The position numbers and the translations under genes were made by a program. 64,000 nt of DNA from a virus (lineage: Duplodnaviria; Heunggongvirae; Uroviricota; Caudoviricetes). A model generated the notes under the pieces. The model ran no database searches. It saw only the letters and a list, made by a program, of their open reading frames with translations, and had not been told where the DNA came from. The stretch is taken from positions 37,871-101,870 of IMG/VR virus record IMGVR_UViG_3300045988_154997; one strand, given 5' to 3'. This document shows, in pieces, positions 1 through 11,051 of the stretch. Each line of letters begins with the position of its first letter. Within the stretch, counting starts at the first letter, position 1.

Positions 1-241
1 CATTCTAACTTATACTATGGTAAGGAATACTACTAAAATTTGTATCAATACTGAATACATTCATATCATATGCAAGTTACTTTTCTTACCTATTTTGGGC
101 TAATTTTTCTCCGTGCAATGGCCTTTAACCGGTCTTTTAAGTGCCTATCGAAAAAAATGATAATAGCTTTACAACCCTAACCTTTGATGTAATATCGGTA
201 AGCACTTACCAGAGAGAATTGAACGCGCAAAGGTTGTGACC

Positions 242-628
242 ATGTCTGATAACAAGATTGAATTTATAGAAAGTCGCTACGCTGCTTTTATCGCAGGGTT
301 GATTGAATCCTCACCTATGAGCCAGGCCCAGATAGCCAAAACAATTGGGTATAAAAACGCCAACAACCTTTCTTTAATTAAAAGCGGCAAAATTCCTTTG
401 CCTATCGATAAGGTTCGTCCGCTGGCGCTGGCACTGGGTATTGAGCCAAGTCGTCTTATGATGATGGTGCTGGAAGAACGCCAACCCGAACTCGCAGCAT
501 TTTTATACAAAGAAGGCACTGCTCCTCTTAACGAGGACGAAAAACAGGTTCTTGCTGCATATAACGAGCGATTCGGTAAAGAGAAAGGCGCATCACAAAA
601 GGTTGTTGAGGCCATAAAGTCTCTATGA
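242..628 (+). CDS. XRE-family HTH regulator (putative)
   Basis: ORF track 236..628 starts at GTG; first ATG at 242. HTH-like stretch SQAQIAKTIGYKNANNLSLIKSG. Converges on and overlaps the recombinase stop by 6 nt. Confidence 0.5.
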   Translation: MSDNKIEFIESRYAAFIAGLIESSPMSQAQIAKTIGYKNANNLSLIKSGKIPLPIDKVRPLALALGIEPSRLMMMVLEERQPELAAFLYKEGTAPLNEDEKQVLAAYNERFGKEKGASQKVVEAIKSL

Positions 629-1726
629 AAAATTTACACGAATAAGCTCTGTTGATAGACGATCTCCCTTAAATTTGTGGTCAATTTCGTCTAAATCCGG
701 TTGCTCTACGATTGATGCGATGTACGTCGAGAAACTTTCTAAGGCGTCTCGCATCTCGTCCATATAATCGTGCCGGTCGTAGACCCGATCTATCCCCTCA
801 AGACTGTGGTTCATGATTTTACGTGATACCTCCTGGCTTATGCCTAATGCTGGGAAGTAACTACGCGCAGTACGGCGCAAATCTCGGGGTGTAAATGGCT
901 CAAGCTCCATCAGTTCTGGTCGTTCCAGAATACGACGTAATGCCTGGGCTATTGCCACTTTAGACATAGGAAGGTCTTTCCCGATTTTTTTATTCGAAGG
1001 CACGAGCCACTGGCTGTCTTTACCATATTCGAACAACTCTTCAATACATGTGCGCATTAATGAGCTTAAAGGCAGAGAATGCTCACGGGCAGATTTGTTC
1101 CTCTTGCCTTGATTCCAAACCCCACGCTTAAGATTGAACTCACTTTTTTTAGCCCGCAGTACTTCGTCAGGTCGTCTTGCGGATACAAGACATAGCCTGG
1201 CCGCCCATTTTGTACCAGCACACACATTGAAGTAGTCCCATATATTCCAGAACACCCATACCTCTGCGTCGGTCAGCTTCCGCTCGCGAGGTGTGGGCTT
1301 TGCGCCACCGGCAACTTTGTTAAGTGACATATCGTTTAACGGTGACACGTCGATCATCCCCTGGAAGGCGCACCAGCTGAGGAACTGCTTCATCAGAGAG
1401 AAAACGCGGCGACCCATAACAATTTTGCCATCCAGTATTAGTGGGTTGACCAGTTGGTTCACCATGAACCTATTAATATCACTTACTTTTACATCGGCAA
1501 TGTGCGGCAAAACATGTATCAAAATACAATGAACAGCGATCTCTGGCCGACGTCTTGTTATCAGCAGAGATAAGCGAGTGAATAACATGAATGCGTCCGA
1601 GAATCTCATGTCATTGCTGACCTGGGAGATCATAACGGCCTGCATTTGAGATGCTCTTTCGAGATACTCAATCGCCTCTTTTGAGGTGTTCTCCGCAGCG
1701 CGTGCTCTGTCAAAGCTATTTTTCAT
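623..1726 (-). CDS. int: tyrosine recombinase / integrase
   Basis: C-terminal catalytic signature: ARRPDEV (Arg box), PRDLRRTARSY (box II-like), MNHSLEGIDRVYDRHDY (HxxxxxxxY with catalytic Tyr). Confidence 0.75.
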   Translation of the reverse strand: MKNSFDRARAAENTSKEAIEYLERASQMQAVMISQVSNDMRFSDAFMLFTRLSLLITRRRPEIAVHCILIHVLPHIADVKVSDINRFMVNQLVNPLILDGKIVMGRRVFSLMKQFLSWCAFQGMIDVSPLNDMSLNKVAGGAKPTPRERKLTDAEVWVFWNIWDYFNVCAGTKWAARLCLVSARRPDEVLRAKKSEFNLKRGVWNQGKRNKSAREHSLPLSSLMRTCIEELFEYGKDSQWLVPSNKKIGKDLPMSKVAIAQALRRILERPELMELEPFTPRDLRRTARSYFPALGISQEVSRKIMNHSLEGIDRVYDRHDYMDEMRDALESFSTYIASIVEQPDLDEIDHKFKGDRLSTELIRVNFS

Positions 1727-1824: not shown

Positions 1825-1857
1825 AATGATTCCATACATAGTAGGTATGGAATCATT
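1825..1857. promoter_or_regulatory. perfect 13-bp inverted repeat AATGATTCCATAC-N7-GTATGGAATCATT, candidate operator
   Basis: Read directly in the divergent intergenic region between the recombinase (minus) and the first cargo ORF (plus). Half-site recurs at 6642-6654 and 7654-7666. Confidence 0.5.
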
Positions 1858-1946
1858 GGGGGGCGATTTTTTTGAATCTATCTTTTCGAACGGAGGGGTT
1901 GGCTTCACTTTTATCTTCATCACCTAAAAGGTAATTGATTTACTTG

Positions 1947-2924
1947 AAAATGGCTGGTTTTATAGTATTGTCATGCGATCGCTGCAACAGGATAAGAAAA
2001 ATGATAAAAGAGACACCGGAAGTCAACACGCTATCTGAGTTATTAGGGGCTACGCCTCCCAAACCTCAGCTAGTAGTGACGACTAAAGGTATTGATTTAG
2101 GTCTGGATATCTCCCTCGGAGATTGGAATAACTCTTCATTATTATCACGACCTTCAGCTTTGTTAGCAATTGAGCATGGGGAAAATTTATTTGAACTCAT
2201 GGATAAAGAGTTAGGTCTTGTTGGTATTAATGAAGAAGGAGTGATCAAGTCAAACATCATTATCGAACTAGATCCCCATAAAACAACTATGAGAATATTA
2301 GGTAAAATTGCGGAAGCACTCATTGTTGAAGAATGTGAAAAAAACGCGAAACAAAATGAAAACTGGGCATTATTAGCAAAGAGATATACCCCTTTCACAG
2401 ATAGTTTGTCTAATTATAAAGCTGTTGGGACTGGACTCAACTATACGAAAATTAACTATCCTACTAAATATCAACCTAATGATACTCAACGGGACATTGT
2501 GTGGATAGACAAACGAGACCCACTTTCTCAATTACTTATTTCTGCTCCAACGTCGAATTCAGGTATACAGGCTGGAATTCAAGTGAAGGTCAGTGCAAAT
2601 GGTCTTAACTATCTATCACCAATGGATTTTTCTAGCAGAAGATATGAGGTCCCTATTGTTTACTTTGATTTAAATAATGATTTTTTTGAAATTCAGATGA
2701 AGATAGTGAACTCAGGAATTGATTCGGTTTATGGAATGGATTATCACCGTGGTAGAAACATTTCTCCTGAAATACATGAAAAACTATGTGCATATTATAA
2801 CCTTATATACTCCATTATCATTGGTGATATGAAATTAGAGGCTCTGTTACTAAATGAAGAGGCACTGAAAGGGTATGTGACTGAGATTAAAGATAGACAA
2901 GGTAAAAGAATAATCGTGACGTGA
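1947..2924 (+). CDS. hypothetical protein (AT-rich cargo gene, no recognisable motif)
   Basis: Long ORF 1935..2924 (TTG in track); first ATG at 1947, alternative ATG at 2001 with AGGA upstream. Visibly AT-rich compared with the structural genes. Confidence 0.45.
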   Translation, partial: KMAGFIVLSCDRCNRIRKMIKETPEVNTLSELLGATPPKPQLVVTTKGIDLGLDISLGDWNNSSLLSRPSALLAIEHGENLFELMDKELGLVGINEEGVIKSNIIIELDPHKTTMRILGKIAEALIVEECEKNAKQNENWALLAKRYTPFTDSLSNYKAVGTGLNYTKINYPTKYQPNDTQRDIVWIDKRDPLSQLLISAPTSNSGIQAGIQVKVSANGLNYLSPMDFSSRRYEVPIVYFDLNNDFFEIQMKIVNSGIDSVYGMDYHRGRNISPEIHEKLCAYYNLIYSIIIGDMKLEALLLNEEALKGYVTEIKDRQGKRIIVT

Positions 2925-3086
2925 AAACCTAAACTGTAAAGGCAACAAAAGGTGAAATAATAACTCATTAAAAGCACATTGTGTGAAATTTTAATCTGAT
3001 AATTCATATATCGGAAGGGATTTTAGATATTTTTAATATTTATAACTGTCCTTTTCATAGATATAGTTGATTTGAGCGCACACTTT

Positions 3087-3107
3087 CATGTAAAAAGCCG
3101 CCTAAGC
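3087..3107. terminator. hairpin AGCCGC-CTAA-GCGGCT, T-run on minus strand
   Basis: Stem-loop followed by TTTTT when read on the minus strand, immediately downstream of the glutaredoxin stop (3117). Confidence 0.5.
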
Positions 3108-3116
3108 GGCTCTTAA

Positions 3117-3362
3117 TTATAATGTACTCACCAGAGCGGCGAATTCCGTATAGCCACCGATAGATTCGCCATTTACGAACACCTGCGGTATGGTCTCCAC
3201 CGGCTTGCCAACCAGGGCGCTCAATTTCTCTTTGTCTATCCCAGCAGACACAATATCGATGTATTCGTAATCGCCAAAACCGTGACCGTGAAGCTGCTTC
3301 GCCAGCTCGACCGCACGTTTGCAGTATGAGCAGTTATCTCGTCCATAGATAGTGATCGTCAT
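3117..3362 (-). CDS. glutaredoxin (GrxA/NrdC-like)
   Basis: 81 aa; CSYC active-site motif at the N-terminus; KPVETIPQVFVNGESIGGYTEF closely resembles E. coli Grx1 from memory. RBS GAGG 7 nt upstream. Confidence 0.85.
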   Translation of the reverse strand: MTITIYGRDNCSYCKRAVELAKQLHGHGFGDYEYIDIVSAGIDKEKLSALVGKPVETIPQVFVNGESIGGYTEFAALVSTL

Positions 3363-3502
3363 TGCTTTGCCTCGTTATGCGCTTCGCTGGGGAACGTGTA
3401 GCGGTTAGTGAAAGAGCTGAGGTGGTAGTGCTCGTGAATGTATGGATTTGACTTCTGCACCTGACGAGATGCGCGACGCGCATGTTTACATTTATTTCCC
3501 AT
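3359..3502 (-). CDS. small basic hypothetical protein (47 aa), translationally coupled to glutaredoxin
   Basis: ATG at 3502 preceded by AAGGA. Stop overlaps the glutaredoxin start as ATGA. Track ORF 3359..3577 is probably an over-extension. Confidence 0.35.
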   Translation of the reverse strand: MGNKCKHARRASRQVQKSNPYIHEHYHLSSFTNRYTFPSEAHNEAKQ

Positions 3503-3558
3503 ATTGAGTCCTTTCAAGTGAGTATCCGAAAGAACTATACAGTTAACGTGCGTAAAAA

Positions 3559-3587
3559 GTAAGTGCTTACCTATCATTTATTGATAG
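3559..3587. promoter_or_regulatory. dispersed motif copy: GTAAGtgCTTAC palindrome + CTATCA-N5-TGATAG palindrome
   Basis: Contains the 16-mer GTGCTTACCTATCATT (3563-3578), identical to 9685-9700. Sits upstream of the plus-strand ORF at 3652. Confidence 0.4.
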
Positions 3588-3651
3588 AAGAATAGCCGCC
3601 TGTCGTGTGATACTATTTACAGAACTAAACTGGCTTTCCACAAGGTGTAAA

Positions 3652-4473
3652 ATGACTATCCTTGAAAATCCTGATGCGAATGTTGAATCTGTTTATAGTC
3701 TTCATCCAACCACGTTGTTTCATTTTACAAAAAACGAAGATGCTTTCTATAGCATATTGGCTGAGAAATATTTTAAACCATTTCTTGCTCGCGAGGAAAT
3801 AAGAGGAGTCGGGGGACGCAGGAGGTTTGCAGTACCAATGGTATCGTTTTGTGACATAAAACTATCACAAATCAGAGATCATAGCGGAAAATATGGAGAA
3901 TTCGGTCTTGGGCTAACTAAGTCTTGGGCGGAAAAGAAAGGTCTACACCCAGTTCTATATATGAATAAGAGTAGTGAAATATTTTCTAAATACAATGCCA
4001 GAATTCGACTTATTAAAAATAAGTTGGTGCCGCTTTGGAAGGCTAGAGGAAATTTAGATACCAAAAACAGAATAGAGTTTGAGAAATTGAAAGCAGAATA
4101 TTCTGATCTATATAATTTACTGCGTTATATGAAAAATTACAGAGGCAAGCTAGAGCGAAAAGATAATAAAACAATAGAGAATTATATATATGCAGACGAG
4201 AAAGAGTGGCGTTATGTGCCAGCTCCTTTTATTGGTGATTTATGGCCTAGTCTGAGTTTGGAGCGTGTTATCACTTCTGATGACAAAGCAAAAATTAGCT
4301 CAAAATTTTCAAAGTTTGGCATTGATTTTGAGTTCAATGATATAAAATATATACTTATACCTAAAGAACAACATATCCAAAAGCTAATTAACTTTCTCTC
4401 AGGTTTAGATGGATTTGAATCTTCAATTATTAGCAAAATTCTGACCATGGATAAAGTAAAGCAAGATTTTTAA
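3652..4473 (+). CDS. hypothetical Abi-like protein (N-terminal LFHFT motif)
   Basis: ORF 3607..4473; first ATG in frame at 3652 (MTILENP). N-terminal LFHFTKNEDAFYSIL recalls the HFT start of AbiGi-type proteins (from memory, unverified). AT-rich. Confidence 0.45.
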   Translation: MTILENPDANVESVYSLHPTTLFHFTKNEDAFYSILAEKYFKPFLAREEIRGVGGRRRFAVPMVSFCDIKLSQIRDHSGKYGEFGLGLTKSWAEKKGLHPVLYMNKSSEIFSKYNARIRLIKNKLVPLWKARGNLDTKNRIEFEKLKAEYSDLYNLLRYMKNYRGKLERKDNKTIENYIYADEKEWRYVPAPFIGDLWPSLSLERVITSDDKAKISSKFSKFGIDFEFNDIKYILIPKEQHIQKLINFLSGLDGFESSIISKILTMDKVKQDF

Positions 4474-4499
4474 TTTTTGGTTTAACGGGAGCCTAATTA

Positions 4500-5711
4500 G
4501 TGTCAATATTTTTAAGCGAAAAGGAAATGCAAAATTGGATAATTGACAAATTATCTGATCAAGATGGATTATATAATTCAATCATCAATATTGATAAATT
4601 AAATGAATTTAATCCGAAAAGACCCGAAGAGAAAAAAATTAAGGAGAGTTATCAGTTTTGTTTAAAGAACATAACATTGTTACATTTAATGACAGATGAT
4701 GAGAATATCTCAGCAACAAAATCTGAGATATTAAGACCTGATGTCGTTGCTTATTCAACAGAGAATGAATCCTTAGTTCTTATTGAGTTAAAAAATTTTT
4801 CAACACCAACAAGGGAAGCTGGAACTGAGCTAGTGGCATATGCTGCGGAACTAAAAAGTTACTTGTCATACTTGTCTGATGGAGATATTACCAATGTACT
4901 TATATCACCTGACTGGCCACCTTTGGTTAGACACTTTATTTTTAATATGATCGTGTGGCAGAAGAAAAACTTTCTATGTTTAGAACCTTGCTATGATTTA
5001 CAAGGTAACGTATCACTTACTCCTTTAGATATTAATAAATTAGTTATTGCGGAAGAAGCACTCAAGTTCTCATTTCGTCATCTTGGCGGGTTTCATATAT
5101 GTTTGTATGATGATGAAATGTATAATCAACCGACTTCCACTTCTCGTTTACATTCGAAATTGAATGTTATTAAAGCCAGCATGGCAAAAATGTCCTCAGA
5201 CGGTGAAAAGACTAATAGCCATGGGTTTGCTATTTTATGTAGAAATTTGAACGAGAGAACTTTAGCACCATATACGATTACTCTAGTTAATGTTTCTGCG
5301 TTTTCTTCCATAGAGCGATACTTTCATTCGCCACAAATATCCAATGCTTCTCAACTCCCTAGAATAGGACAAAAAATTTATGACATTTACACTCATTACC
5401 AACCATCAGGTTTTGGGGCATCAATGTCGAAAATTTACAATTCTGGGAGGGCATATTTAGAAAAAATTAATTGCAAGCCGCGGATCGAGGTTATAGACAC
5501 CTGGGATGTATTGCAAGTACATACACATGCGCCTTATATGGAAATGGTTCATATTGAAACGTGGGGAGTTTTTAAAGAAAAATTGATTGAAGGTCTAAAT
5601 GAATGTTATGAGGATGAATATTACACACCTGATTTTAACGATGTAGATTTTTGCATGGTGTGTATTGAATCCTTAATTGACCAGAATTATGAATTTATAA
5701 AACTTTTTTGA
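4500..5711 (+). CDS. PD-(D/E)xK nuclease-like protein (putative)
   Basis: 403 aa. Motif ILRPDVVAYSTENESLVLIELK fits the PD...(D/E)xK nuclease core. GTG start at 4500 with GGGAG 9 nt upstream; 26 nt after the previous gene. AT-rich. Confidence 0.5.
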   Translation: MSIFLSEKEMQNWIIDKLSDQDGLYNSIINIDKLNEFNPKRPEEKKIKESYQFCLKNITLLHLMTDDENISATKSEILRPDVVAYSTENESLVLIELKNFSTPTREAGTELVAYAAELKSYLSYLSDGDITNVLISPDWPPLVRHFIFNMIVWQKKNFLCLEPCYDLQGNVSLTPLDINKLVIAEEALKFSFRHLGGFHICLYDDEMYNQPTSTSRLHSKLNVIKASMAKMSSDGEKTNSHGFAILCRNLNERTLAPYTITLVNVSAFSSIERYFHSPQISNASQLPRIGQKIYDIYTHYQPSGFGASMSKIYNSGRAYLEKINCKPRIEVIDTWDVLQVHTHAPYMEMVHIETWGVFKEKLIEGLNECYEDEYYTPDFNDVDFCMVCIESLIDQNYEFIKLF

Positions 5712-5713
5712 AG

Positions 5714-5736
5714 AAAAGGGGCCGAAGCCCCTTTGA
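5714..5736. terminator. rho-independent terminator hairpin (AAAAGGGGC-CGAA-GCCCCTTTT), bidirectional
   Basis: GC stem with 4-nt loop and flanking A/T runs. Ends the plus-strand cargo operon and the minus-strand tRNA transcript. Confidence 0.6.
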
Positions 5737-5805
5737 ATATTGCGCTGAAAAAAAGTGTTGCTAGGATGTTAGCAAGCTATGGTTAAGAACGTCTGCCGTA
5801 ATTGT

Positions 5806-5895
5806 CAATCACAGCGTTGAGCGGTCTGGTTTATGTTAGCGGAGTCTTAATCGAGTTGATTAAAAGGCCAAACCGCTCAACGCTGTGTCTGGCGG
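5806..5895. repeat. long inverted repeat (15-bp arms ACAGCGTTGAGCGGT / ACCGCTCAACGCTGT, ~56-nt spacer)
   Basis: Read directly. Arms resemble those of a second IR at 6712-6833. Lies next to the 3' end of tRNA-Ser. Confidence 0.5.
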
Positions 5896-5899
5896 AGAG

Positions 5900-5986
5900 T
5901 AATGGAATCGAACCATCATCGTTTGCACAATGGGACGATTTTCAAGACCGCTTGAGCACCATGCTCCCTACTCTCCGGCCGTTGTG
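5900..5986 (-). tRNA. tRNA-Ser (anticodon UGA, type II) - tentative isotype
   Basis: 87 nt; reverse complement starts GGAGAGT, ends GGTTCGATTCCATTACTCTCCGCCA. Anticodon loop CTTGAAA. Long variable arm. Anticodon stem has two G-U pairs. Confidence 0.6.
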
Positions 5987-6200
5987 GTGGCCGGTACTGA
6001 ATCTCCGGCATACGGTGCAGCCAATTAGGACTACGGACGATCACCGCTCGCGAAAGGGAAGATTTGCGGCCGCATTTCCCTAACATCCAAGAAAGCTATC
6101 GCATCAGTCTGCGAATCCACCACAACGGTAAGATCACTACCTTTCGACCAGTCATTGTGCACATGAACGACGATTAACCGTAATGATCTTATCGTTGTAT

Positions 6201-6276
6201 TGGTGCCGGTTAACGGACTCGAACCGCTGACATCCTGCTTACAAGGCAGGCGCTCTACCAACTGAGCTAAACCGGC
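6201..6276 (-). tRNA. tRNA-Thr (anticodon UGU)
   Basis: 76 nt GCCGGTTTAGCTCAGTTGGTAGAGCGCCTGCCTTGTAAGCAGG...GGTTCGAGTCCGTTAACCGGCACCA; perfect acceptor and anticodon stems; CCA encoded. Confidence 0.8.
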
Positions 6277-6280
6277 AATT

Positions 6281-6367
6281 TGGTGGGGAGTGATGGAGTC
6301 GAACCACCCGAGTCGCAATGACAGTAGATTTACAGTCTGTCCCGCTACCTCTACGGACTAACTCCCC
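6281..6367 (-). tRNA. tRNA-Tyr (anticodon GUA, type II), atypical anticodon stem
   Basis: 87 nt GGGGAGT...ACAGA-CTGTAAA-TCTAC...GGTTCGACTCCATCACTCCCCACCA; resembles E. coli tRNA-Tyr but the two outer anticodon-stem pairs are C-A / A-C. Confidence 0.65.
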
Positions 6368-6372
6368 TAAAT

Positions 6373-6447
6373 TGGCGATGGTGGGTGGATTCGAACCACC
6401 GACCAGTTGGTTAACAGCCAACTGCTCTACCGCTGAGCTACACCATC
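6373..6447 (-). tRNA. tRNA-Asn (anticodon GUU)
   Basis: 75 nt GATGGTGTAGCTCAGCGGTAGAGCAGTTGGCTGTTAACCAACTGGTCGGTGGTTCGAATCCACCCACCATCGCCA; canonical cloverleaf. Confidence 0.8.
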
Positions 6448-6637
6448 AATTCAGCACTGCCAGTATTTATTACTCAACAGTGCCAATCGCGGCGGTGTTA
6501 GTTTCTGCCAGGAAACACACCGCTACTGGCACTTTCCGTTAGTGCCAGACGTTTTCGACTTCGCTCAATAGAAGGCAAAATCTTTAAGTAGATGATGTTT
6601 CTGAGGACAGCACCTACTTTGTAATTTATACAATGTG

Positions 6638-6654
6638 ATGTATGGAATCATTTG
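6638..6654. promoter_or_regulatory. 17-mer GATGTATGGAATCATTT (copy 1 of 2)
   Basis: Identical 17-mer at 7650-7666; shares its 13-mer with the operator palindrome at 1825-1857. Confidence 0.4.
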
Positions 6655-6711
6655 TTGTGAAAACAGGCACTAATGGCAACAGTGGTTAAACCTATACAAC
6701 AATCCTGTCTT

Positions 6712-6833
6712 CACAACGTTGAGGCCACTACTCCGATTGAATGTTTGCCCAACATGTTACATATCAACGCTCGCCGGTATCTCTGTGAATAGAACCTTAG
6801 AATTGATAAAAATGTAATGGCCTCAACGTTGTG
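6712..6833. repeat. long inverted repeat (15-bp arms CACAACGTTGAGGCC / GGCCTCAACGTTGTG, ~92-nt spacer)
   Basis: Read directly; arm sequence is related to the 5806-5895 IR. Confidence 0.5.
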
Positions 6834-6909
6834 TGCTGGCTAACCATACCAGCCGGGCTACGTCGCCGCTTTTTAACCCAGTATAAACGACATAATTGAA
6901 CAAAATGAC

Positions 6910-6989
6910 GTAACAGGATGGGCGGTCATTGGCTAAGAATCCGGGAGTCGTATATGAGTTGAAAATATACTGACCGCCCATTCTGTTAC
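6910..6989. repeat. inverted repeat (19-bp arms GTAACAGGATGGGCGGTCA / TGACCGCCCATTCTGTTAC, 1 mismatch)
   Basis: Read directly. A further 8-bp-stem hairpin (GAGGGAAC-TCTCAT-GTTCCCTC) follows at 6997-7018. Confidence 0.5.
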
Positions 6990-7193
6990 TTCATCGGAGG
7001 GAACTCTCATGTTCCCTCCTGCGTTCTGCAATCACACTCGCTCAGTGTGTCCCATTTCGGTAACGAGGCTGGAAACTGACCTCGCTGGTGTTTGGCTTAT
7101 TAGGCTACTGCCAGATAGACTTCTTCGTTTGCACTTGTATTTAAGTTCAAACAGTCGCGTCTCAACGAAAACAAAGTCATCTTATACATAAAA

Positions 7194-7219
7194 GATAGGT
7201 AAGTAAATACTTATTATTG
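7194..7219. promoter_or_regulatory. dispersed motif copy (GATAGGTAAGTA + TAAGTA-aa-TACTTA)
   Basis: Contains the reverse complement of TACTTACCTATC and a TAAGTA..TACTTA palindrome; just downstream of the gene ending at 7225. Confidence 0.35.
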
Positions 7220-7224
7220 TATTT

Positions 7225-7515
7225 TTATTCGGTTGTGACTTTTTTGATCAAGGCCACTCTACGACTAGGTGTTCTTGTGATGGTGGCAGTGAATTGTTTC
7301 GCTTGGATAGTAATGGTTTCGTTCTCCTTAAGTTGCCCGTAGCGAGTTTCCACCAGGGTGCCAAGACGCCACAGACCATCATCGATACGTTTATGACTAG
7401 CAAATTTAATCAGCAACAGTTTTACGACTAACTGACCTACGTAAAAGGCGAATGCGACTCCGGCCGCTAAGAAATAGGTGACCAACCACCATTCCCAAGA
7501 AGTTAACTTGCTCAT
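7225..7515 (-). CDS. small membrane protein (hypothetical)
   Basis: 96 aa with hydrophobic segment WEWWLVTYFLAAGVAFAFYVG; start overlaps the upstream stop as ATGA. Confidence 0.5.
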   Translation of the reverse strand: MSKLTSWEWWLVTYFLAAGVAFAFYVGQLVVKLLLIKFASHKRIDDGLWRLGTLVETRYGQLKENETITIQAKQFTATITRTPSRRVALIKKVTTE

Positions 7516-7664
7516 TTTTTCACCTTTGTTTCATGAACTACTCGATACACGCGCTTTCCGATGCACAGTGTTTTGGTTTTAAGTTCCTGCTTAATCAAAT
7601 CATGACAGATGCCGAAGCCGATAAGGAAGCCAGCCATAAAAGCCAATGAGATGTATGGAATCAT
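7512..7664 (-). CDS. small hydrophobic protein (50 aa; below the ORF-track size cutoff)
   Basis: Hand-translated MIPYISLAFMAGFLIGFGICHDLIKQELKTKTLCIGKRVYRVVHETKVKK; ATGA overlaps at both ends. Its start lies inside the 17-mer motif. Confidence 0.35.
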   Translation of the reverse strand: MIPYISLAFMAGFLIGFGICHDLIKQELKTKTLCIGKRVYRVVHETKVKK

Positions 7665-7876
7665 TTAAAGGCTCCTGATTCTACTAATTGCTGTAGCAAT
7701 AATTTCCCTTTATCAGTTAACTGGTAGTTGGCCGAGCGCCACGTTTCAGAAACGTTTGCAACCAACCCTAAACGCTCTAACTTAGCTCGCGTTTTAGGCT
7801 TCCAGTACTCAGGGAACTCCGGCCACTTACTTATTTCATGAAGCGTTTCTTTCTCCCGTTTACTTAATACGATCAT
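7661..7876 (-). CDS. hypothetical protein
   Basis: 71 aa ORF; start overlaps the ligase stop (7873-7876), translationally coupled. Confidence 0.45.
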   Translation of the reverse strand: MIVLSKREKETLHEISKWPEFPEYWKPKTRAKLERLGLVANVSETWRSANYQLTDKGKLLLQQLVESGAFK

Positions 7877-9195
7877 TCTTTATCTCCGATTCGATCTTCG
7901 GTATCGCGTAAGCAACGCGGCCATTTCAGTCGTGGGTGGCGTAAGCTGCCATCAGGTGTTTTCTCGTGACAATGAACCTCGACAATACGACCACGGTACT
8001 TCTCTTTGTTGTTCCAGATCTCGTCCAGATATTTATGCTTAATGCCGCTCGCACGAACGATGACGCCGTTTTCAAGACGAATAACAATTTTCCCAAGCGT
8101 GTTGGCAAAACCAGAGTCCGGGTCGCCCGGCTCAAAATCGATAATTTCACCATCTTCTGAATCTTCGTCTTTTAACTTCCACCAGCTGCGGGTACGTTTA
8201 AACTCGTAAACAGAGTTCGGATCTTTGCCCATCTCCCCTTCTTCGTTATCGTCCAGGCGTTTCATGAAGCGTTCGATGAAGTCTTCGTGGCTATGGATGA
8301 TGTAGAACGGATGCAGGTGAATGTCTTGTGCGTAGCCTTCACTGCGATCGTTTTTGAACAACGCCACGAGCATAGCCAGGCGCTCTTTCAGCTTCATACC
8401 TGTCTTTGCATACTCTTTGGATTTAGCCTGTGCTCGCCATTCCGGTAGGAAGAAGTCGAAAACATGATAAATAGCGCCAATTGCCTGCACGTTCTTTTTG
8501 CGCAATGCAGATACGGACTGGTTAAATGAACCGGCTGTGCCTTCACCATCGAAGAAGATGTGTTTGTGGCCTGAAAGTTTGCCTAATTCGAGCATGGCTG
8601 GCTTTAGGTGATCGAGAGACGTGATTGGATTACCAGTACGAGAAAGGAAGTTAACCTCTTCTTCGTCAACAATAACCTCGCAAATTACTCGCAAACCATC
8701 GAGCTTAAGGCTGCCAATCATCGGCCATTTTGCTTTAGGGTTTGGCTTGAAGGGGTATTTGTCGCCTTTTTCTTTATACGGTGACGCCAGCTGCACCTCG
8801 AATTTCGGAATGGGATTTTCAAAAACCTTGTTGCATAGGCTAATCCCAACGCCAGCTTTCGGATCTTTTAAGAGGAAACGACGGAAGACGTCCTGCCCAT
8901 CGGCGCACATTGACGCCACGATAGACTCAACAGCAGCTATTGCTGCGTTCCCCGTCAGCTCGCGAGAGGCCAGCTTATTCAGTACATCAATGGCTTTTTC
9001 GTCACTTGGGACGGACTCACTAAGCGGCTCTGCCACTTTGTATTTCTTTACCCCAAAACGGATGAAAGGGTTGAGCATCAATGAAACCATGCTTTGTTCA
9101 AAGTCATCCATGTTGGCCAATGCCTCTTTTTTTGCATTGGTTCCCATAGCTTTCATTTCGTCCAGCTTATGCTTAAGTGCGATCAACTTTTTCAT
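7873..9195 (-). CDS. ATP-dependent DNA ligase
   Basis: Adenylation motif I KLDGLR (SLKLDGLRVICEV); C-terminal GSLRHPRLKWPRCLRDTEDRIGDKE typical of ATP-dependent ligase OB-domain ends. Confidence 0.8.
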   Translation of the reverse strand: MKKLIALKHKLDEMKAMGTNAKKEALANMDDFEQSMVSLMLNPFIRFGVKKYKVAEPLSESVPSDEKAIDVLNKLASRELTGNAAIAAVESIVASMCADGQDVFRRFLLKDPKAGVGISLCNKVFENPIPKFEVQLASPYKEKGDKYPFKPNPKAKWPMIGSLKLDGLRVICEVIVDEEEVNFLSRTGNPITSLDHLKPAMLELGKLSGHKHIFFDGEGTAGSFNQSVSALRKKNVQAIGAIYHVFDFFLPEWRAQAKSKEYAKTGMKLKERLAMLVALFKNDRSEGYAQDIHLHPFYIIHSHEDFIERFMKRLDDNEEGEMGKDPNSVYEFKRTRSWWKLKDEDSEDGEIIDFEPGDPDSGFANTLGKIVIRLENGVIVRASGIKHKYLDEIWNNKEKYRGRIVEVHCHEKTPDGSLRHPRLKWPRCLRDTEDRIGDKE

Positions 9196-10637: not shown

Positions 10638-11051
10638 TTAATGAGCTACAGCCTCACTGTTGCACATCTTTCTGTAGACCTGCTTATAACGCTGTAAATC
10701 ATGAGGATCATTAGGTGCCAACGACTTCGATAGGATTTTGTATACCACCCCTTTTGAAAACATGCCCTTTGGCTTCATTTCGAGTTCAACAACATATGAG
10801 TGATAGCCCACGTATGCACCAAAGCCATTTTTGGCGTTTAATTCACCACACACAAAGCCTGTCACACTCCCATCATCATGATCAGTCCTGACAAACTTAT
10901 CTTTCCTAAACATCACCGACGTGGGATCTTTCATATCATCCGCAATTGCCTGTTGGCCCAGAGTAATAGCCTTCTCGTCTGTAGGCTTACACCCAACTAA
11001 TGCAAACAAAGACAATAAAGCACCTGTTAAAATCAACTTCTTTTTGCTCAT
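10638..11051 (-). CDS. lipoprotein (hypothetical)
   Basis: Signal peptide with lipobox MSKKKLILTGALLSLFALVGC. Confidence 0.55.
   Translation of the reverse strand: MSKKKLILTGALLSLFALVGCKPTDEKAITLGQQAIADDMKDPTSVMFRKDKFVRTDHDDGSVTGFVCGELNAKNGFGAYVGYHSYVVELEMKPKGMFSKGVVYKILSKSLAPNDPHDLQRYKQVYRKMCNSEAVAH

Follow-up and report, generated by a model that had tools for sequence, protein, structure and literature searches.

The 33-bp palindrome beside the tyrosine recombinase gene is probably the core site of this recombinase, with a role in multimer resolution or cyclisation, and forms the edge of a cargo region. Single copies of its arm elsewhere in the element appear to be solitary arms under selection, and binding of the recombinase to them is a guess. 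The window, the 64-kb stretch of DNA that was analysed as a whole (Table 1), is an SSU5/pHCM2/pMT1-type phage-plasmid. A close relative is Cyrano. The palindrome was assigned to the recombinase because its arms co-vary with the recombinase, the pair also occurs where an adjacent XRE gene is missing and the XRE gene has a palindrome of its own.

Table 1. Features of the window discussed in the text.
Feature	Position	Strand	Remarks
Candidate XRE operator, 14-bp palindrome GGTAAGCACTTACC	197–210		directly after extended −10 box (TGTAATAT)
XRE-like helix-turn-helix regulator	236–628	+	convergent with recombinase gene, overlaps its 3′ end
Tyrosine recombinase Int, 367 aa	623–1726	−	PF00589; core-binding and catalytic domains, no arm-binding domain
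Degenerate arm-like copy within recombinase gene	1109–1120	−	TTGATTCCAAAC on plus strand, 10/12
Inferred recombinase promoter	1772–1800	−	TTGATC (1800–1795), 17 nt, TAATAT (1777–1772); read by eye
Presumed core recombination site	1825–1857		left arm 1825–1837, spacer 1838–1844, right arm 1845–1857
MIPYI ORF within palindrome	1826–1927	+	reading changes with spacer
Variable cargo region	1858–5708		homology to relatives ends at 1857, returns at ~5708
Cargo ORF, 329 aa, unknown	1935–2924	+	
Cargo glutaredoxin	3117–3362	−	
Second copy of candidate XRE operator (AGTAAGTGCTTACC)	3558–3571		ahead of minus-strand glutaredoxin operon
Cargo AbiGi-like gene	3607–4473	+	Pfam and PADLOC
Cargo 403-aa partner	4500–5711	+	
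tRNA cluster Ser-Thr-Tyr-Asn	5890–6447	−	between cargo and site 2
MIPYI ORF, 28 aa	6565–6651	−	
Site 2, solitary arm copy	6637–6653	+	exact 17-mer; non-coding; ~190 nt upstream (transcript sense) of tRNA-Asn
Downstream neighbour of 50-aa ORF	7225–7515		shares 4 nt (ATGA) with it
MIPYI ORF, 50-aa hydrophobic protein	7512–7664	−	phrog_6302, full length, E = 8e-36
Site 3, solitary arm copy	7650–7666	+	exact 17-mer; covers stop codon of 71-aa ORF and start codon of 50-aa ORF
Upstream neighbour of 50-aa ORF	7661–7876		shares 4 nt (ATGA) with it

The palindrome consists of the arms AATGATTCCATAC and GTATGGAATCATT around the spacer ATAGTAG. The first-pass annotation had described it as a perfect 13-bp inverted repeat with N7, and re-reading of the sequence bore this out. 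No other perfect 13-bp inverted repeat with a spacer of 0–20 bp occurs in the window; at least one such repeat arose in 3 of 100 Markov simulations. A distance of 24 bp separates the 33-mer from the −35 box, downstream of it, of a recombinase promoter, which is regarded as putative because its score is under the threshold of the consensus scan. The GATCAA box of this promoter is kept in diverged lineages. An intrinsic terminator was not called between 1600 and 2100; the stem contains G or C at 4 of 13 positions and a T run begins 9 nt beyond it.

Conservation of the palindrome beside this gene extends to 78 viral contigs and 7 genomes. A recombinase homologue lies 44–100 bp from the full site in every related locus that reaches that flank (16–100 bp including diverged lineages), with the site upstream of the gene. 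The arms, which were fixed by the search pattern so that part of their invariance is ascertainment, are identical at 13 of 13 positions while the recombinase protein identity spans 57–100%. The flanks of the full site fall into at least five diverged groups. In an independent set anchored on the polymerase gene, arm changes occurred at the outermost base only. The spacer is 7 bp long in every lineage examined and varies in its letters (ATAGTAG, TTAATAG, CTTACAA, CTACCAA and others). Recombinases at 44–50% identity have the same layout with both arms altered jointly, to ATGACTCCAGAC-N7-GTCTGGAGTCAT or GTGACTCCAGAC-N7-GTCTGGAGTCAC. Three of the contexts of such pairs are plasmids of non-phage type: a plasmid contig of Erwinia, a 507-kb replicon of Pantoea and a contig of 120 kb. 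Linkage to the recombinase, co-variation with it and the perfect 13-7-13 layout agree with simple core sites of the lox, FRT and dif type, in which inverted arms of ~11–13 bp surround a spacer of 6–8 bp. The earlier proposal of the recombinase as a likely partner of the palindrome, which lies between its gene and the cargo, thus gains support from sequence comparison.

The protein belongs to the tyrosine recombinase superfamily (PF00589, 40.6 bits vs. a cut-off of 27.1) and also matches the phrog_1 integrase (E = 5e-47). Across 29 homologues, R185, K211, R284, H307 and Y316 show little or no variation; the first histidine of the H-x-x-R signature is an arginine (R281) in this family. The predicted structure (pLDDT 85) matches the folds of lambda Int 75–356, Tn1549 Int, Xer, IntI and Cre. 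The top matches are constructs of core-binding and catalytic domains (lambda Int 75–356; Tn1549 Int 82–397), with Cre at rank 38 and lower (E ~1e-2). A phmmer search of the PDB, in which Cre is present, gave no sequence match at E ≤ 1. PF13356 was not reported on the recombinase and is listed only for homologues at ≤34% identity.

The element was met only in plasmid form, and each replicon has a single full site. Among 5426 complete E. coli genomes, 252 contain it at 255 places, all on plasmids; no chromosomal, integrated copy was among these places. The recombinase–site pair was likewise seen in Salmonella Typhi pHCM2 and in Yersinia pestis, on a contig of 108 kb that is taken to be pMT1-like. 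A role in multimer resolution is suggested because the element is plasmid-only with one full site per replicon. We infer binding, strand exchange, the resolution role and a function of the solitary copies as follows. The two identical 13-bp arms would be binding sites around a 7-bp crossover spacer. One recombinase monomer would occupy each arm, two copies of the site would synapse and strands would be exchanged across the spacer. The likely job would be the resolution of plasmid multimers and possibly the circularisation of incoming phage DNA, as with Cre/loxP for P1. As a by-product, the site may act as the fixed edge of a hot spot for cargo-module swaps between lineages.

A description of the site or of a Cre/lox-like pairing was not found in the searchable literature. 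The arrangement resembles Cre/loxP of P1 and its relatives Dre/rox and Vika/vox: a phage-plasmid tyrosine recombinase lies beside a single simple site with perfect 13-bp inverted arms and a short asymmetric spacer. One site per replicon is shared, as is the expected resolution or cyclisation role, for which chromosomal integration is not needed. Unlike in Cre/loxP, the recombinase has no detectable sequence similarity to Cre, the fold rank of Cre is far below those of lambda Int and Tn1549 Int, and the spacer has 7 bp, compared to 8 bp in the 34-bp loxP. The PDB search, the fold rank and the spacer length place the pair outside the Cre/loxP family. We know of no counterpart for loxP of solitary arm copies kilobases away.

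Integrases of the lambda-Int and P4 type share the 7-bp crossover and provide the best structural matches. Seven bp is the overlap length of the lambda-Int type and the crossover region of lambda att sites. P4-type integrases are the nearest sequence relatives with an extra domain (PF13356 in P0114–P0120). Unlike these enzymes, the recombinase lacks the N-terminal arm-binding domain, and its site is a perfect palindrome by the gene rather than an attP with arm-type sites. A lambda-type heterobivalent integrase with attP was rejected in view of the absent domain and of 0 of 255 E. coli copies being chromosomal. Xer/dif, cer, XerS/difSL, XerH/difH and ResD/rfsF of F have inverted arms around a 6–8 bp spacer and the function proposed here; XerS/difSL and XerH/difH also combine a single recombinase gene with its own adjacent site. 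In contrast to such dimer-resolution sites, the recombinase is encoded by the element itself and belongs to another lineage, and accessory sequences were not recognised nearby. The arm sequence is unrelated to dif, which is GGTGCGCATAA-N6-TTATGTTAAAT.

Pdif modules of Acinetobacter plasmids and integron attI/attC cassettes resemble this locus in that the site falls on the border of exchangeable cargo and that one cargo class is found on different backbones. The cargo falls into 25 classes among 150 loci, and the same class is joined to different recombinase/spacer lineages. Loci L005 and L029 are 76.5% identical on the side of the recombinase and 91.3% identical on that of the cargo, and the switch occurs at the first base past the arm. 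Among the matches listed for E. coli genomes, most stop exactly at 1857. As judged from these alignments, the palindrome marks a sharp, fixed edge of a swappable cargo region. Unlike in pdif modules and integrons, there is one full site, a second full site flanking the cargo was not found, the right boundary (~5708) is a terminator-like hairpin and an IntI-type integrase is absent. An integron or cassette array does not fit one full site per replicon with lone arms as the other copies. Between lineages with different spacers, cargo exchange leaves the spacer with the recombinase side, which counts against a clean recombinase-mediated crossover within the spacer. A loose A/T-rich motif is common to the cargo flanks, so that sequence divergence, and not insertion, may account for part of the boundary.

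The 17-mer GATGTATGGAATCATTT recurs exactly at sites 2 and 3. Both recurrences were already seen in the first-pass annotation, with the first placed one base off (6638–6654 instead of 6637–6653). Four matches to the 17-mer with at most three mismatches occurred in 0 of 100 shuffles. In the window and the remaining 49 kb of Cyrano (~113 kb), the 12-mer core is located in the palindrome, at sites 2 and 3 and at one place in a DNA polymerase gene, and nowhere else. Most other lineages, pHCM2 among them, have an intact version, GATGTATGGAATCAA, of the copy that is degenerate here within the recombinase gene. The 12-mer is the same in all lineages at sites 2 and 3 and in the polymerase gene, with diverged flanks and without synonymous changes (SSU5 site 2 has one T-to-C change). 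Site 2 is the only invariant block of alignment A2, and the site 3 codons ATG ATT CCA TAC ATC have 0 synonymous changes over diverged lineages. SSU5 has lost the recombinase, the XRE gene and the palindrome together, yet keeps the solitary copies. Shuffles and comparative constraint thus sustain the earlier idea of a shared signal: the two distant 17-mers are a common DNA signal and not due to chance. The alignments indicate that the solitary copies are kept unchanged by selection on DNA (or RNA).

The best guess is that the solitary copies are extra recombinase-binding sites with a regulatory or architectural function. Each is oriented like the arm on its own side of the core. A partner arm at 6–8 bp from the lone arms was not recognisable, and neither were promoters at these copies. 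To our knowledge, accessory sites of known recombinases lie within ~200 bp of the core and not kilobases away. The polymerase loop of Providencia and Xenorhabdus consists of another peptide and lacks the arm copy. Their phage-plasmids have a sequence-different analogue in cobT and after dnaB. At 2 of 11 positions, this solitary element, ATCGGGAGTCA, does not match the local arm, which another binder or RNA pairing would explain no less well than binding of the recombinase.

It is unlikely, though worth weighing, that the solitary copies work as RNA, by trans or long-range pairing that controls processing, decay or translation of replication genes, with the palindrome still the DNA site of the recombinase. 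All genes here are co-oriented; upstream transcripts (sites 2 and 3) carry AAAUGAUUCCAUACAUC and downstream ones (recombinase, polymerase) the exact complement GAUGUAUGGAAUCAU. The transcript classes are perfectly complementary over 15–17 nt, with a constant strand assignment in all lineages. Site 3 spans the ribosome-binding region and the start codon, and site 2 is mostly unpaired in the consensus fold of a structured non-coding leader before the tRNAs. The Providencia and Xenorhabdus solitary elements match each other and differ from the arms, as mutual pairing predicts. However, RNA pairing alone leaves the identity of the copies with the recombinase arms in this clade unexplained. An Rfam search gave no match, the covariation term in the fold is only 0.09 kcal/mol, and compensatory changes cannot be scored because the core never varies.

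Binding of another phage-plasmid or host factor to the solitary copies is rather improbable. They would then form an oriented set around the core and might, for instance, load the phage-type replication machinery or act as polar barriers against replication or transcription. The copies occur in phage-plasmids only, being absent from non-phage plasmids with the same recombinase–site pair, and are found within or next to genes for replication (polymerase, ligase operon, cobT, dnaB). In two clades, six copies at separate places have an orientation that is mirrored about the core, although it is confounded with the uniform direction of transcription. Retention in SSU5 without the recombinase agrees with another binder; their identity to the recombinase arms in this clade does not, and a candidate binding protein was not found. 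P1 C1 operators, Ter/Tus and KOPS around dif likewise combine asymmetric single motifs over several kb with one two-part palindromic copy or an orientation that mirrors around a recombination site. This likeness is an analogy only: here there are 3–4 copies, inside coding sequence, and the binder is putative.

The XRE-like protein had also been considered as a binder of the palindrome. It is very unlikely that all copies are operators of this repressor, with a two-part operator in the palindrome and single operators in control of the polymerase gene, the tRNA leader and the operon of small ORFs. The position of the palindrome between the recombinase promoter region and a highly expressed first cargo gene would suit an operator, and SSU5, which was isolated as a phage, lacks XRE, recombinase and palindrome alike. 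The dispersed single copies resemble the asymmetric C1 operators of P1. In the Cyrano lysogen, CYRAN_43 was 723-fold over background and the XRE homologue CYRAN_45 was expressed (PMC9928086). Against this, the palindrome stays with the recombinase where an adjacent XRE gene is missing (Erwinia L174, Pantoea megaplasmid L178, 120-kb contig L181 and Chimaeribacter L090), and its arms co-vary with the recombinase lineage. The XRE promoter has a separate 6-2-6 palindrome, conserved upstream of XRE homologues at 56–100% identity and present in two copies in the window vs. 0 of 100 shuffles. A helix-turn-helix dimer would not typically bind 13-bp arms whose centres are separated by 20 bp, and a 13-7-13 site beside a two-domain tyrosine recombinase has the layout of a crossover site. 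The solitary copies also lie away from recognisable promoters.

Minus-strand small ORFs starting with MIPYI were found at both 17-mers, as first noticed, and both ATGA overlaps of the 50-aa ORF are present. Only its product is a conserved protein, with homologues at 54–94% identity. Recurrence of the 17-mers by coding constraint, or as duplicated gene starts with a shared MIPYI N-terminus, is scarcely credible: the 50-aa ORF is a real conserved gene starting with MIPYI, but relatives have no coding sequence at site 2 (MIPYIQ-stop in SSU5), the in-frame polymerase copy reads C-M-E-S-L in another frame and on the other strand, the ORF in the palindrome shifts with the spacer, synonymous positions are fixed while neighbouring codons vary, and the copy number was reproduced in 0 of 100 shuffles.

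About 5% of complete E. coli genomes have the recombinase–site pair. Provided that the recombinase is active, the pair would explain how large phage-plasmids avoid multimers and why the first nucleotide of their defence and accessory cargo is always at one fixed place. The natural variant site families (ATGATTCCATAC vs. GTGACTCCAGAC arms, many spacers) may be useful as compact lox-like tools if they are not cross-reactive. The invariant lone arms in coding sequence clearly illustrate how selection on DNA or RNA can prevail over codon freedom, and they suggest a regulatory link. A more far-reaching idea, which is speculative and at present doubtful, is that the lone arms belong to a site-specific recombination module as a hitherto unrecognised layer, placed to either side of the core at a distance of kilobases, in essential replication genes and pointing towards the core. 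As polar recombinase-bound barriers, loop anchors or complementary RNA elements, they could link the state of the recombination site to replication or to the expression of phage replication genes. If so, the analogue in Providencia and Xenorhabdus would mean that the lone-arm arrangement arose more than once.

The window belongs to an SSU5-type phage-plasmid. Over positions 600-2000, the window and a 111-kb plasmid from E. coli LH09-a are 100% identical, and the Escherichia phages CMS-2020a and Cyrano share about 97% identity with the window. In relatives, the region to the left of the window contains a 70-aa gene, cobT, cobS and a DNA polymerase III alpha gene. The perfect inverted repeat between recombinase gene and cargo, two 13-bp arms around a 7-bp spacer, was present as the first-pass annotation had described it. 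It is the single instance in 64 kb; 3 of 100 Markov simulations gave one. For its single-stranded DNA, a stem of 13 bp is predicted (-11.3 kcal/mol, z = -7.3), and a terminator scan predicted no terminator at the palindrome. The 17-mer GATGTATGGAATCATTT recurs exactly in two solitary copies of the arm (half-sites), of which site 2 begins one base before the position first assigned to it. With up to 3 mismatches allowed, four 17-mer matches were observed, a number reached in none of 100 shuffles.

Features of the recombinase module, its solitary elements and related loci (coordinates refer to the window unless a locus, L, is named)
Feature	Position (strand)	Sequence or context
XRE-like regulator	236-628 (+)	
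Candidate XRE operator	197-210	GGTAAGCACTTACC, 14-bp palindrome upstream of XRE gene
Near-copy of candidate operator	3558-3571	AGTAAGTGCTTACC, ahead of minus-strand glutaredoxin operon
Tyrosine recombinase "Int"	623-1726 (-)	
Palindrome	1825-1857	AATGATTCCATAC-ATAGTAG-GTATGGAATCATT, between recombinase gene and cargo
Variable cargo	beyond palindrome, before tRNAs	includes AbiGi-like protein
First cargo ORF	1935-2924	329 aa
AbiGi-like gene and 403-aa gene	3607-5711	26 nt apart
tRNAs Ser/Thr/Tyr/Asn	5867-6451	after cargo
Inverted repeat, long-range	5800-5890	CACAGCGTTGAGCGG...CCGCTCAACGCTGTG, beside tRNA-Ser
Non-coding stretch with site 2	after tRNAs	
Site 2	6637-6653	non-coding; sole invariant block of alignment A2
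Inverted repeat	6703-6838	CACAACGTTGAGGCC...GGCCTCAACGTTGTG, long-range, arms separated by about 95 nt; between site 2 and 96-aa gene
Small-gene operon, 71/50/96 aa	after site-2 stretch	contains site 3
Site 3	7650-7666	in 71/50/96-aa operon
DNA ligase	after small-gene operon	
ORFs starting MIPYI	6565..6651 (-), 7512..7664 (-), 1826..1927 (+)	
Polymerase copy	about 6.0 kb left of palindrome, opposite strand	about 250 nt into polymerase gene
Fourth near-copy	1109-1120 (-); L182 (pHCM2) 7730 (-); L092 7917-7928 (-)	GATGTATGGAATCAA (degenerate in the window), inside recombinase gene, codons D-V-W-N-Q
Solitary element, Providencia/Xenorhabdus	L172 13122 (+), 6584 (-); L173 13076 (+), 481 (-); L179 13006; L180 13090	tgATCGGGAGTCA
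cobS-like AAA gene, Xenorhabdus	L173 14481-16802; L180 14531-16834	LAGLIDADG domain insertion
Providencia site		ATGACTCCAGAC-TACATAG-GTCTGGAGTCAT
Xenorhabdus site		GTGACTCCAGAC-GTAGTTA-GTCTGGAGTCAC
Erwinia plasmid contig, Pantoea 507-kb replicon and 120-kb contig sites		GTGACTCCAGAC-CTATTAA/TTATTAG-GTCTGGAGTCAC/T

The palindrome had been proposed as an operator for either the XRE-like regulator or the recombinase. In a pattern scan with both arms fixed in sequence and any 7-bp spacer, 78 viral contigs had the site, as did 7 of the species-representative genomes (Kluyvera, Chimaeribacter, Buttiauxella and a 108-kb Yersinia pestis contig); S. Typhi pHCM2 also has it. Wherever a locus reaches far enough, the start of a recombinase homologue lies at a distance of 44-100 bp. 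Recombinase identity falls from 100% to 57% with the arms unchanged, and the flanks form at least five unalignable groups, many loci being redundant samples of few lineages. An independent check of 80 polymerase-anchored loci showed the outermost base as the sole arm change. The spacer is constant at 7 bp and lineage-specific in sequence (ATAGTAG, TTAATAG, CTTACAA, CTACCAA, CTAAGGA, TTACATA and others). At 44-50% recombinase identity, architecture and place are the same and both arms are altered together, also on the Erwinia, Pantoea and 120-kb replicons, none of which is phage-like. Arms that co-vary symmetrically with the recombinase lineage, whatever the neighbouring genes, are expected of a recombinase core site. 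This comparison assigns the palindrome to the recombinase as its putative core site, to which the enzyme would bind.

The other proposed partner, the XRE protein, does not fit. The Erwinia, Pantoea, 120-kb and Chimaeribacter loci have no XRE gene adjacent to that of the recombinase, so that site and recombinase occur as a pair without it, and the XRE gene has a candidate operator of its own. The 14-bp palindrome GGTAAGCACTTACC lies directly 3' of a TTTACA-17-TGTAATAT promoter with an extended -10 box and is kept upstream of XRE homologues at 56-100% identity. With the near-copy there are two in the window, which none of 100 shuffles gave. GGTAAGCACTTACC is the likely true operator of the XRE protein.

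The recombinase matches PF00589. R185, K211, R284, H307 and Y316 show little or no variation among 29 homologues, and R281 takes the place of the usual first histidine. The best structural matches of the AlphaFold model (pLDDT 85) were Tn1549 Int 82-397 and lambda Int 75-356, followed by Xer, IntI and Cre. From these fold matches, the enzyme is predicted to consist of a core-binding and a catalytic domain without an arm-binding domain. The arm-binding domain PF13356 is confined to homologues at 34% identity or less. Recombinases of this reduced architecture use simple sites; in the lambda-Int lineage, the overlap typically measures 7 bp.

Most of the E. coli matches listed stop exactly at 1857, where the right arm ends. 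Beyond the arm, 150 oriented loci fall into 25 sequence classes. A given cargo class can occur with different recombinase and spacer lineages, and identity then jumps across the site: between loci L005 and L029, for example, it is 76.5% for 1.47 kb on the side of the recombinase and, counted from the first base past the arm, 91.3% for 1.42 kb of cargo. The match ends and the re-joined cargo classes mark the palindrome, at the level of sequence, as a recurrent recombination boundary. A clean cassette exchange by the recombinase has to be viewed with caution, because the spacer stays with the recombinase side in exchanges and a motif is shared beyond the arm. This is a common loose T-run/AAATYCTGA motif 8-25 nt past the arm in unrelated cargo classes (1858-1900; L001-L083): a T run, then GAATCT, AAATCTGA or AAATTCTGA. 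Its function could be that of a promoter/UP element common to these classes, or of an accessory site for DNA bending.

The right cargo boundary, at about 5708, is a hairpin 3' of the last cargo gene and not a site. The half-site at 6637 was considered for this role since a megablast alignment to SSU5 began exactly there; sensitive blastn, in which homology resumes at 6372 in SSU5 and at about 5708 in close relatives, revealed this start as an artefact. The first cargo ORF had no match. In the Cyrano lysogen, the first cargo gene is the highest-expressed gene, 723-fold over background (PMC9928086). The AbiGi-like protein (PADLOC E = 5e-47) and the following 403-aa protein, which is without a family match, may form an AbiG-like two-gene abortive-infection pair. 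A shared mobile tRNA block is suggested by the similarity of the tRNA cluster to tRNA genes elsewhere: identity is 92-93% with those of P7 and D6, which are unrelated phage-plasmids, and about 79% with those of N4-like phages. The inverted repeats beside tRNA-Ser and to the right of site 2 are related in sequence and have no Rfam match. The LAGLIDADG insertion in the cobS-like gene of Xenorhabdus phage-plasmids is probably an intein or a homing endonuclease.

The spacer alone was inverted in at least two lineages. PhiR41_1 (10821-10853) and locus L038 (4934-4966) are 99.8% identical on both sides, with exactly reverse-complemented spacers (CTACTAT and ATAGTAG), and L040 and L088 show the same flip in the TTAATAG group. 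The function is thus independent of spacer orientation relative to the neighbouring genes. The flips were not taken as a sign of recombinase activity, because template switching can also invert a short loop flanked by perfect inverted repeats, without a recombinase.

In all lineages, SSU5 site 2 excepted, the 12-mer GTATGGAATCAT is unchanged at three homologous positions (sites 2 and 3 and the polymerase gene); in most cases GAT precedes it. The flanks have strongly diverged, and synonymous positions within the 12-mer are unchanged. In the polymerase gene, the copy encodes C-M-E-S-L in a loop; the same loop reads ETQLP in Providencia and EELLP in Xenorhabdus, which have no copy there. Fixed synonymous positions and a variable loop peptide argue for selection on the nucleic acid and not on the protein. 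The near-copy in the recombinase gene is intact in most non-E. coli lineages, including pHCM2, and degenerate in the E. coli lineage of the window; beyond these copies, the arm motif is absent from about 113 kb. Every copy is oriented like the palindrome arm on its own side; orientation and the uniform transcription direction are confounded here. In Providencia and Xenorhabdus, the phage-plasmids have a different conserved solitary element, with 9/11 positions matching their own arm, in cobT and just after dnaB. It also has diverged flanks and follows the same orientation rule around its own palindrome. The non-phage plasmids had no solitary elements.

Additional binding of the same recombinase is the first choice for the half-sites, tentatively and at slightly below an even chance within the overall model, because in this clade their sequence is exactly that of the arms. 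A degenerate partner arm 6-8 bp from each half-site was sought by eye, and none was found beyond chance. Alternatively, the half-sites may serve RNA-RNA pairing between complementary transcript segments, upstream transcripts containing AUGAUUCCAUAC and downstream transcripts its complement, or may bind a different, oriented DNA-binding factor. Both alternatives agree with the better match of the Xenorhabdus-clade solitary elements to each other than to the arms, and with the retention of the copies in SSU5, which lacks the recombinase. An Rfam search returned only tRNAs, the consensus fold of the site-2 leader had no convincing covariation, and no sigma-70 promoter was predicted at the half-sites. 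Duplicated 5' gene ends, suggested by the minus-strand ORFs that indeed start with MIPYI at both 17-mer copies, can be dismissed: the site-2 frame is not conserved (MIPYIQ-stop in SSU5) and that of the palindrome varies with the spacer. The 50-aa ORF at site 3, coupled to both neighbours by ATGA overlaps as first described, is a genuine conserved small protein (phrog_6302) with homologues; these do not reach the other clade, where its N-terminus was to be compared with the arm.

SSU5 is a 6.6-kb deletion derivative (8718-8727, compared with L092 6590-13207) with about 10 bp overlap at the junction. It lost the 70-aa gene, XRE, recombinase, palindrome and cargo. Neither the 585 plasmid records nor the phage collection contained the junction a second time, and its uniqueness may be linked to the isolation of SSU5 as a phage. 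Its solitary copies are retained and include the sole core substitution seen in any lineage, T to C in site 2. For half-site decay without a recombinase, SSU5 is the one informative genome (n=1); locus L131, also without recombinase, ends before the sites.

The searchable literature, queried by topic and by site sequences, yielded no description of the module. As a pair, recombinase and site are in principle ordinary; what is unusual is the presence of conserved, oriented lone arms within coding sequence. In working principle, the module resembles Cre/loxP of P1 and self-encoded dif-type systems. It does not belong to the Cre family, as it has no sequence similarity and a spacer of 7 bp instead of 8, and it differs from lambda-type integrase/attP in lacking an arm-binding domain and integrated copies.

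A search of 5426 complete E. coli genomes found the module in 252 of them, with all 255 copies on plasmids and none on a chromosome. Per replicon, a single full site is present. Two module copies each occur in three of the E. coli plasmid records, and several E. coli carriers are 150-230 kb in size and cointegrate-like in appearance. A role in chromosomal integration is unlikely, given the plasmid-only copies and the one full site per replicon. On the economical reading of these distributions, recombinase and site would resolve multimers of the phage-plasmid, and perhaps also cyclise its DNA after infection, as in P1.
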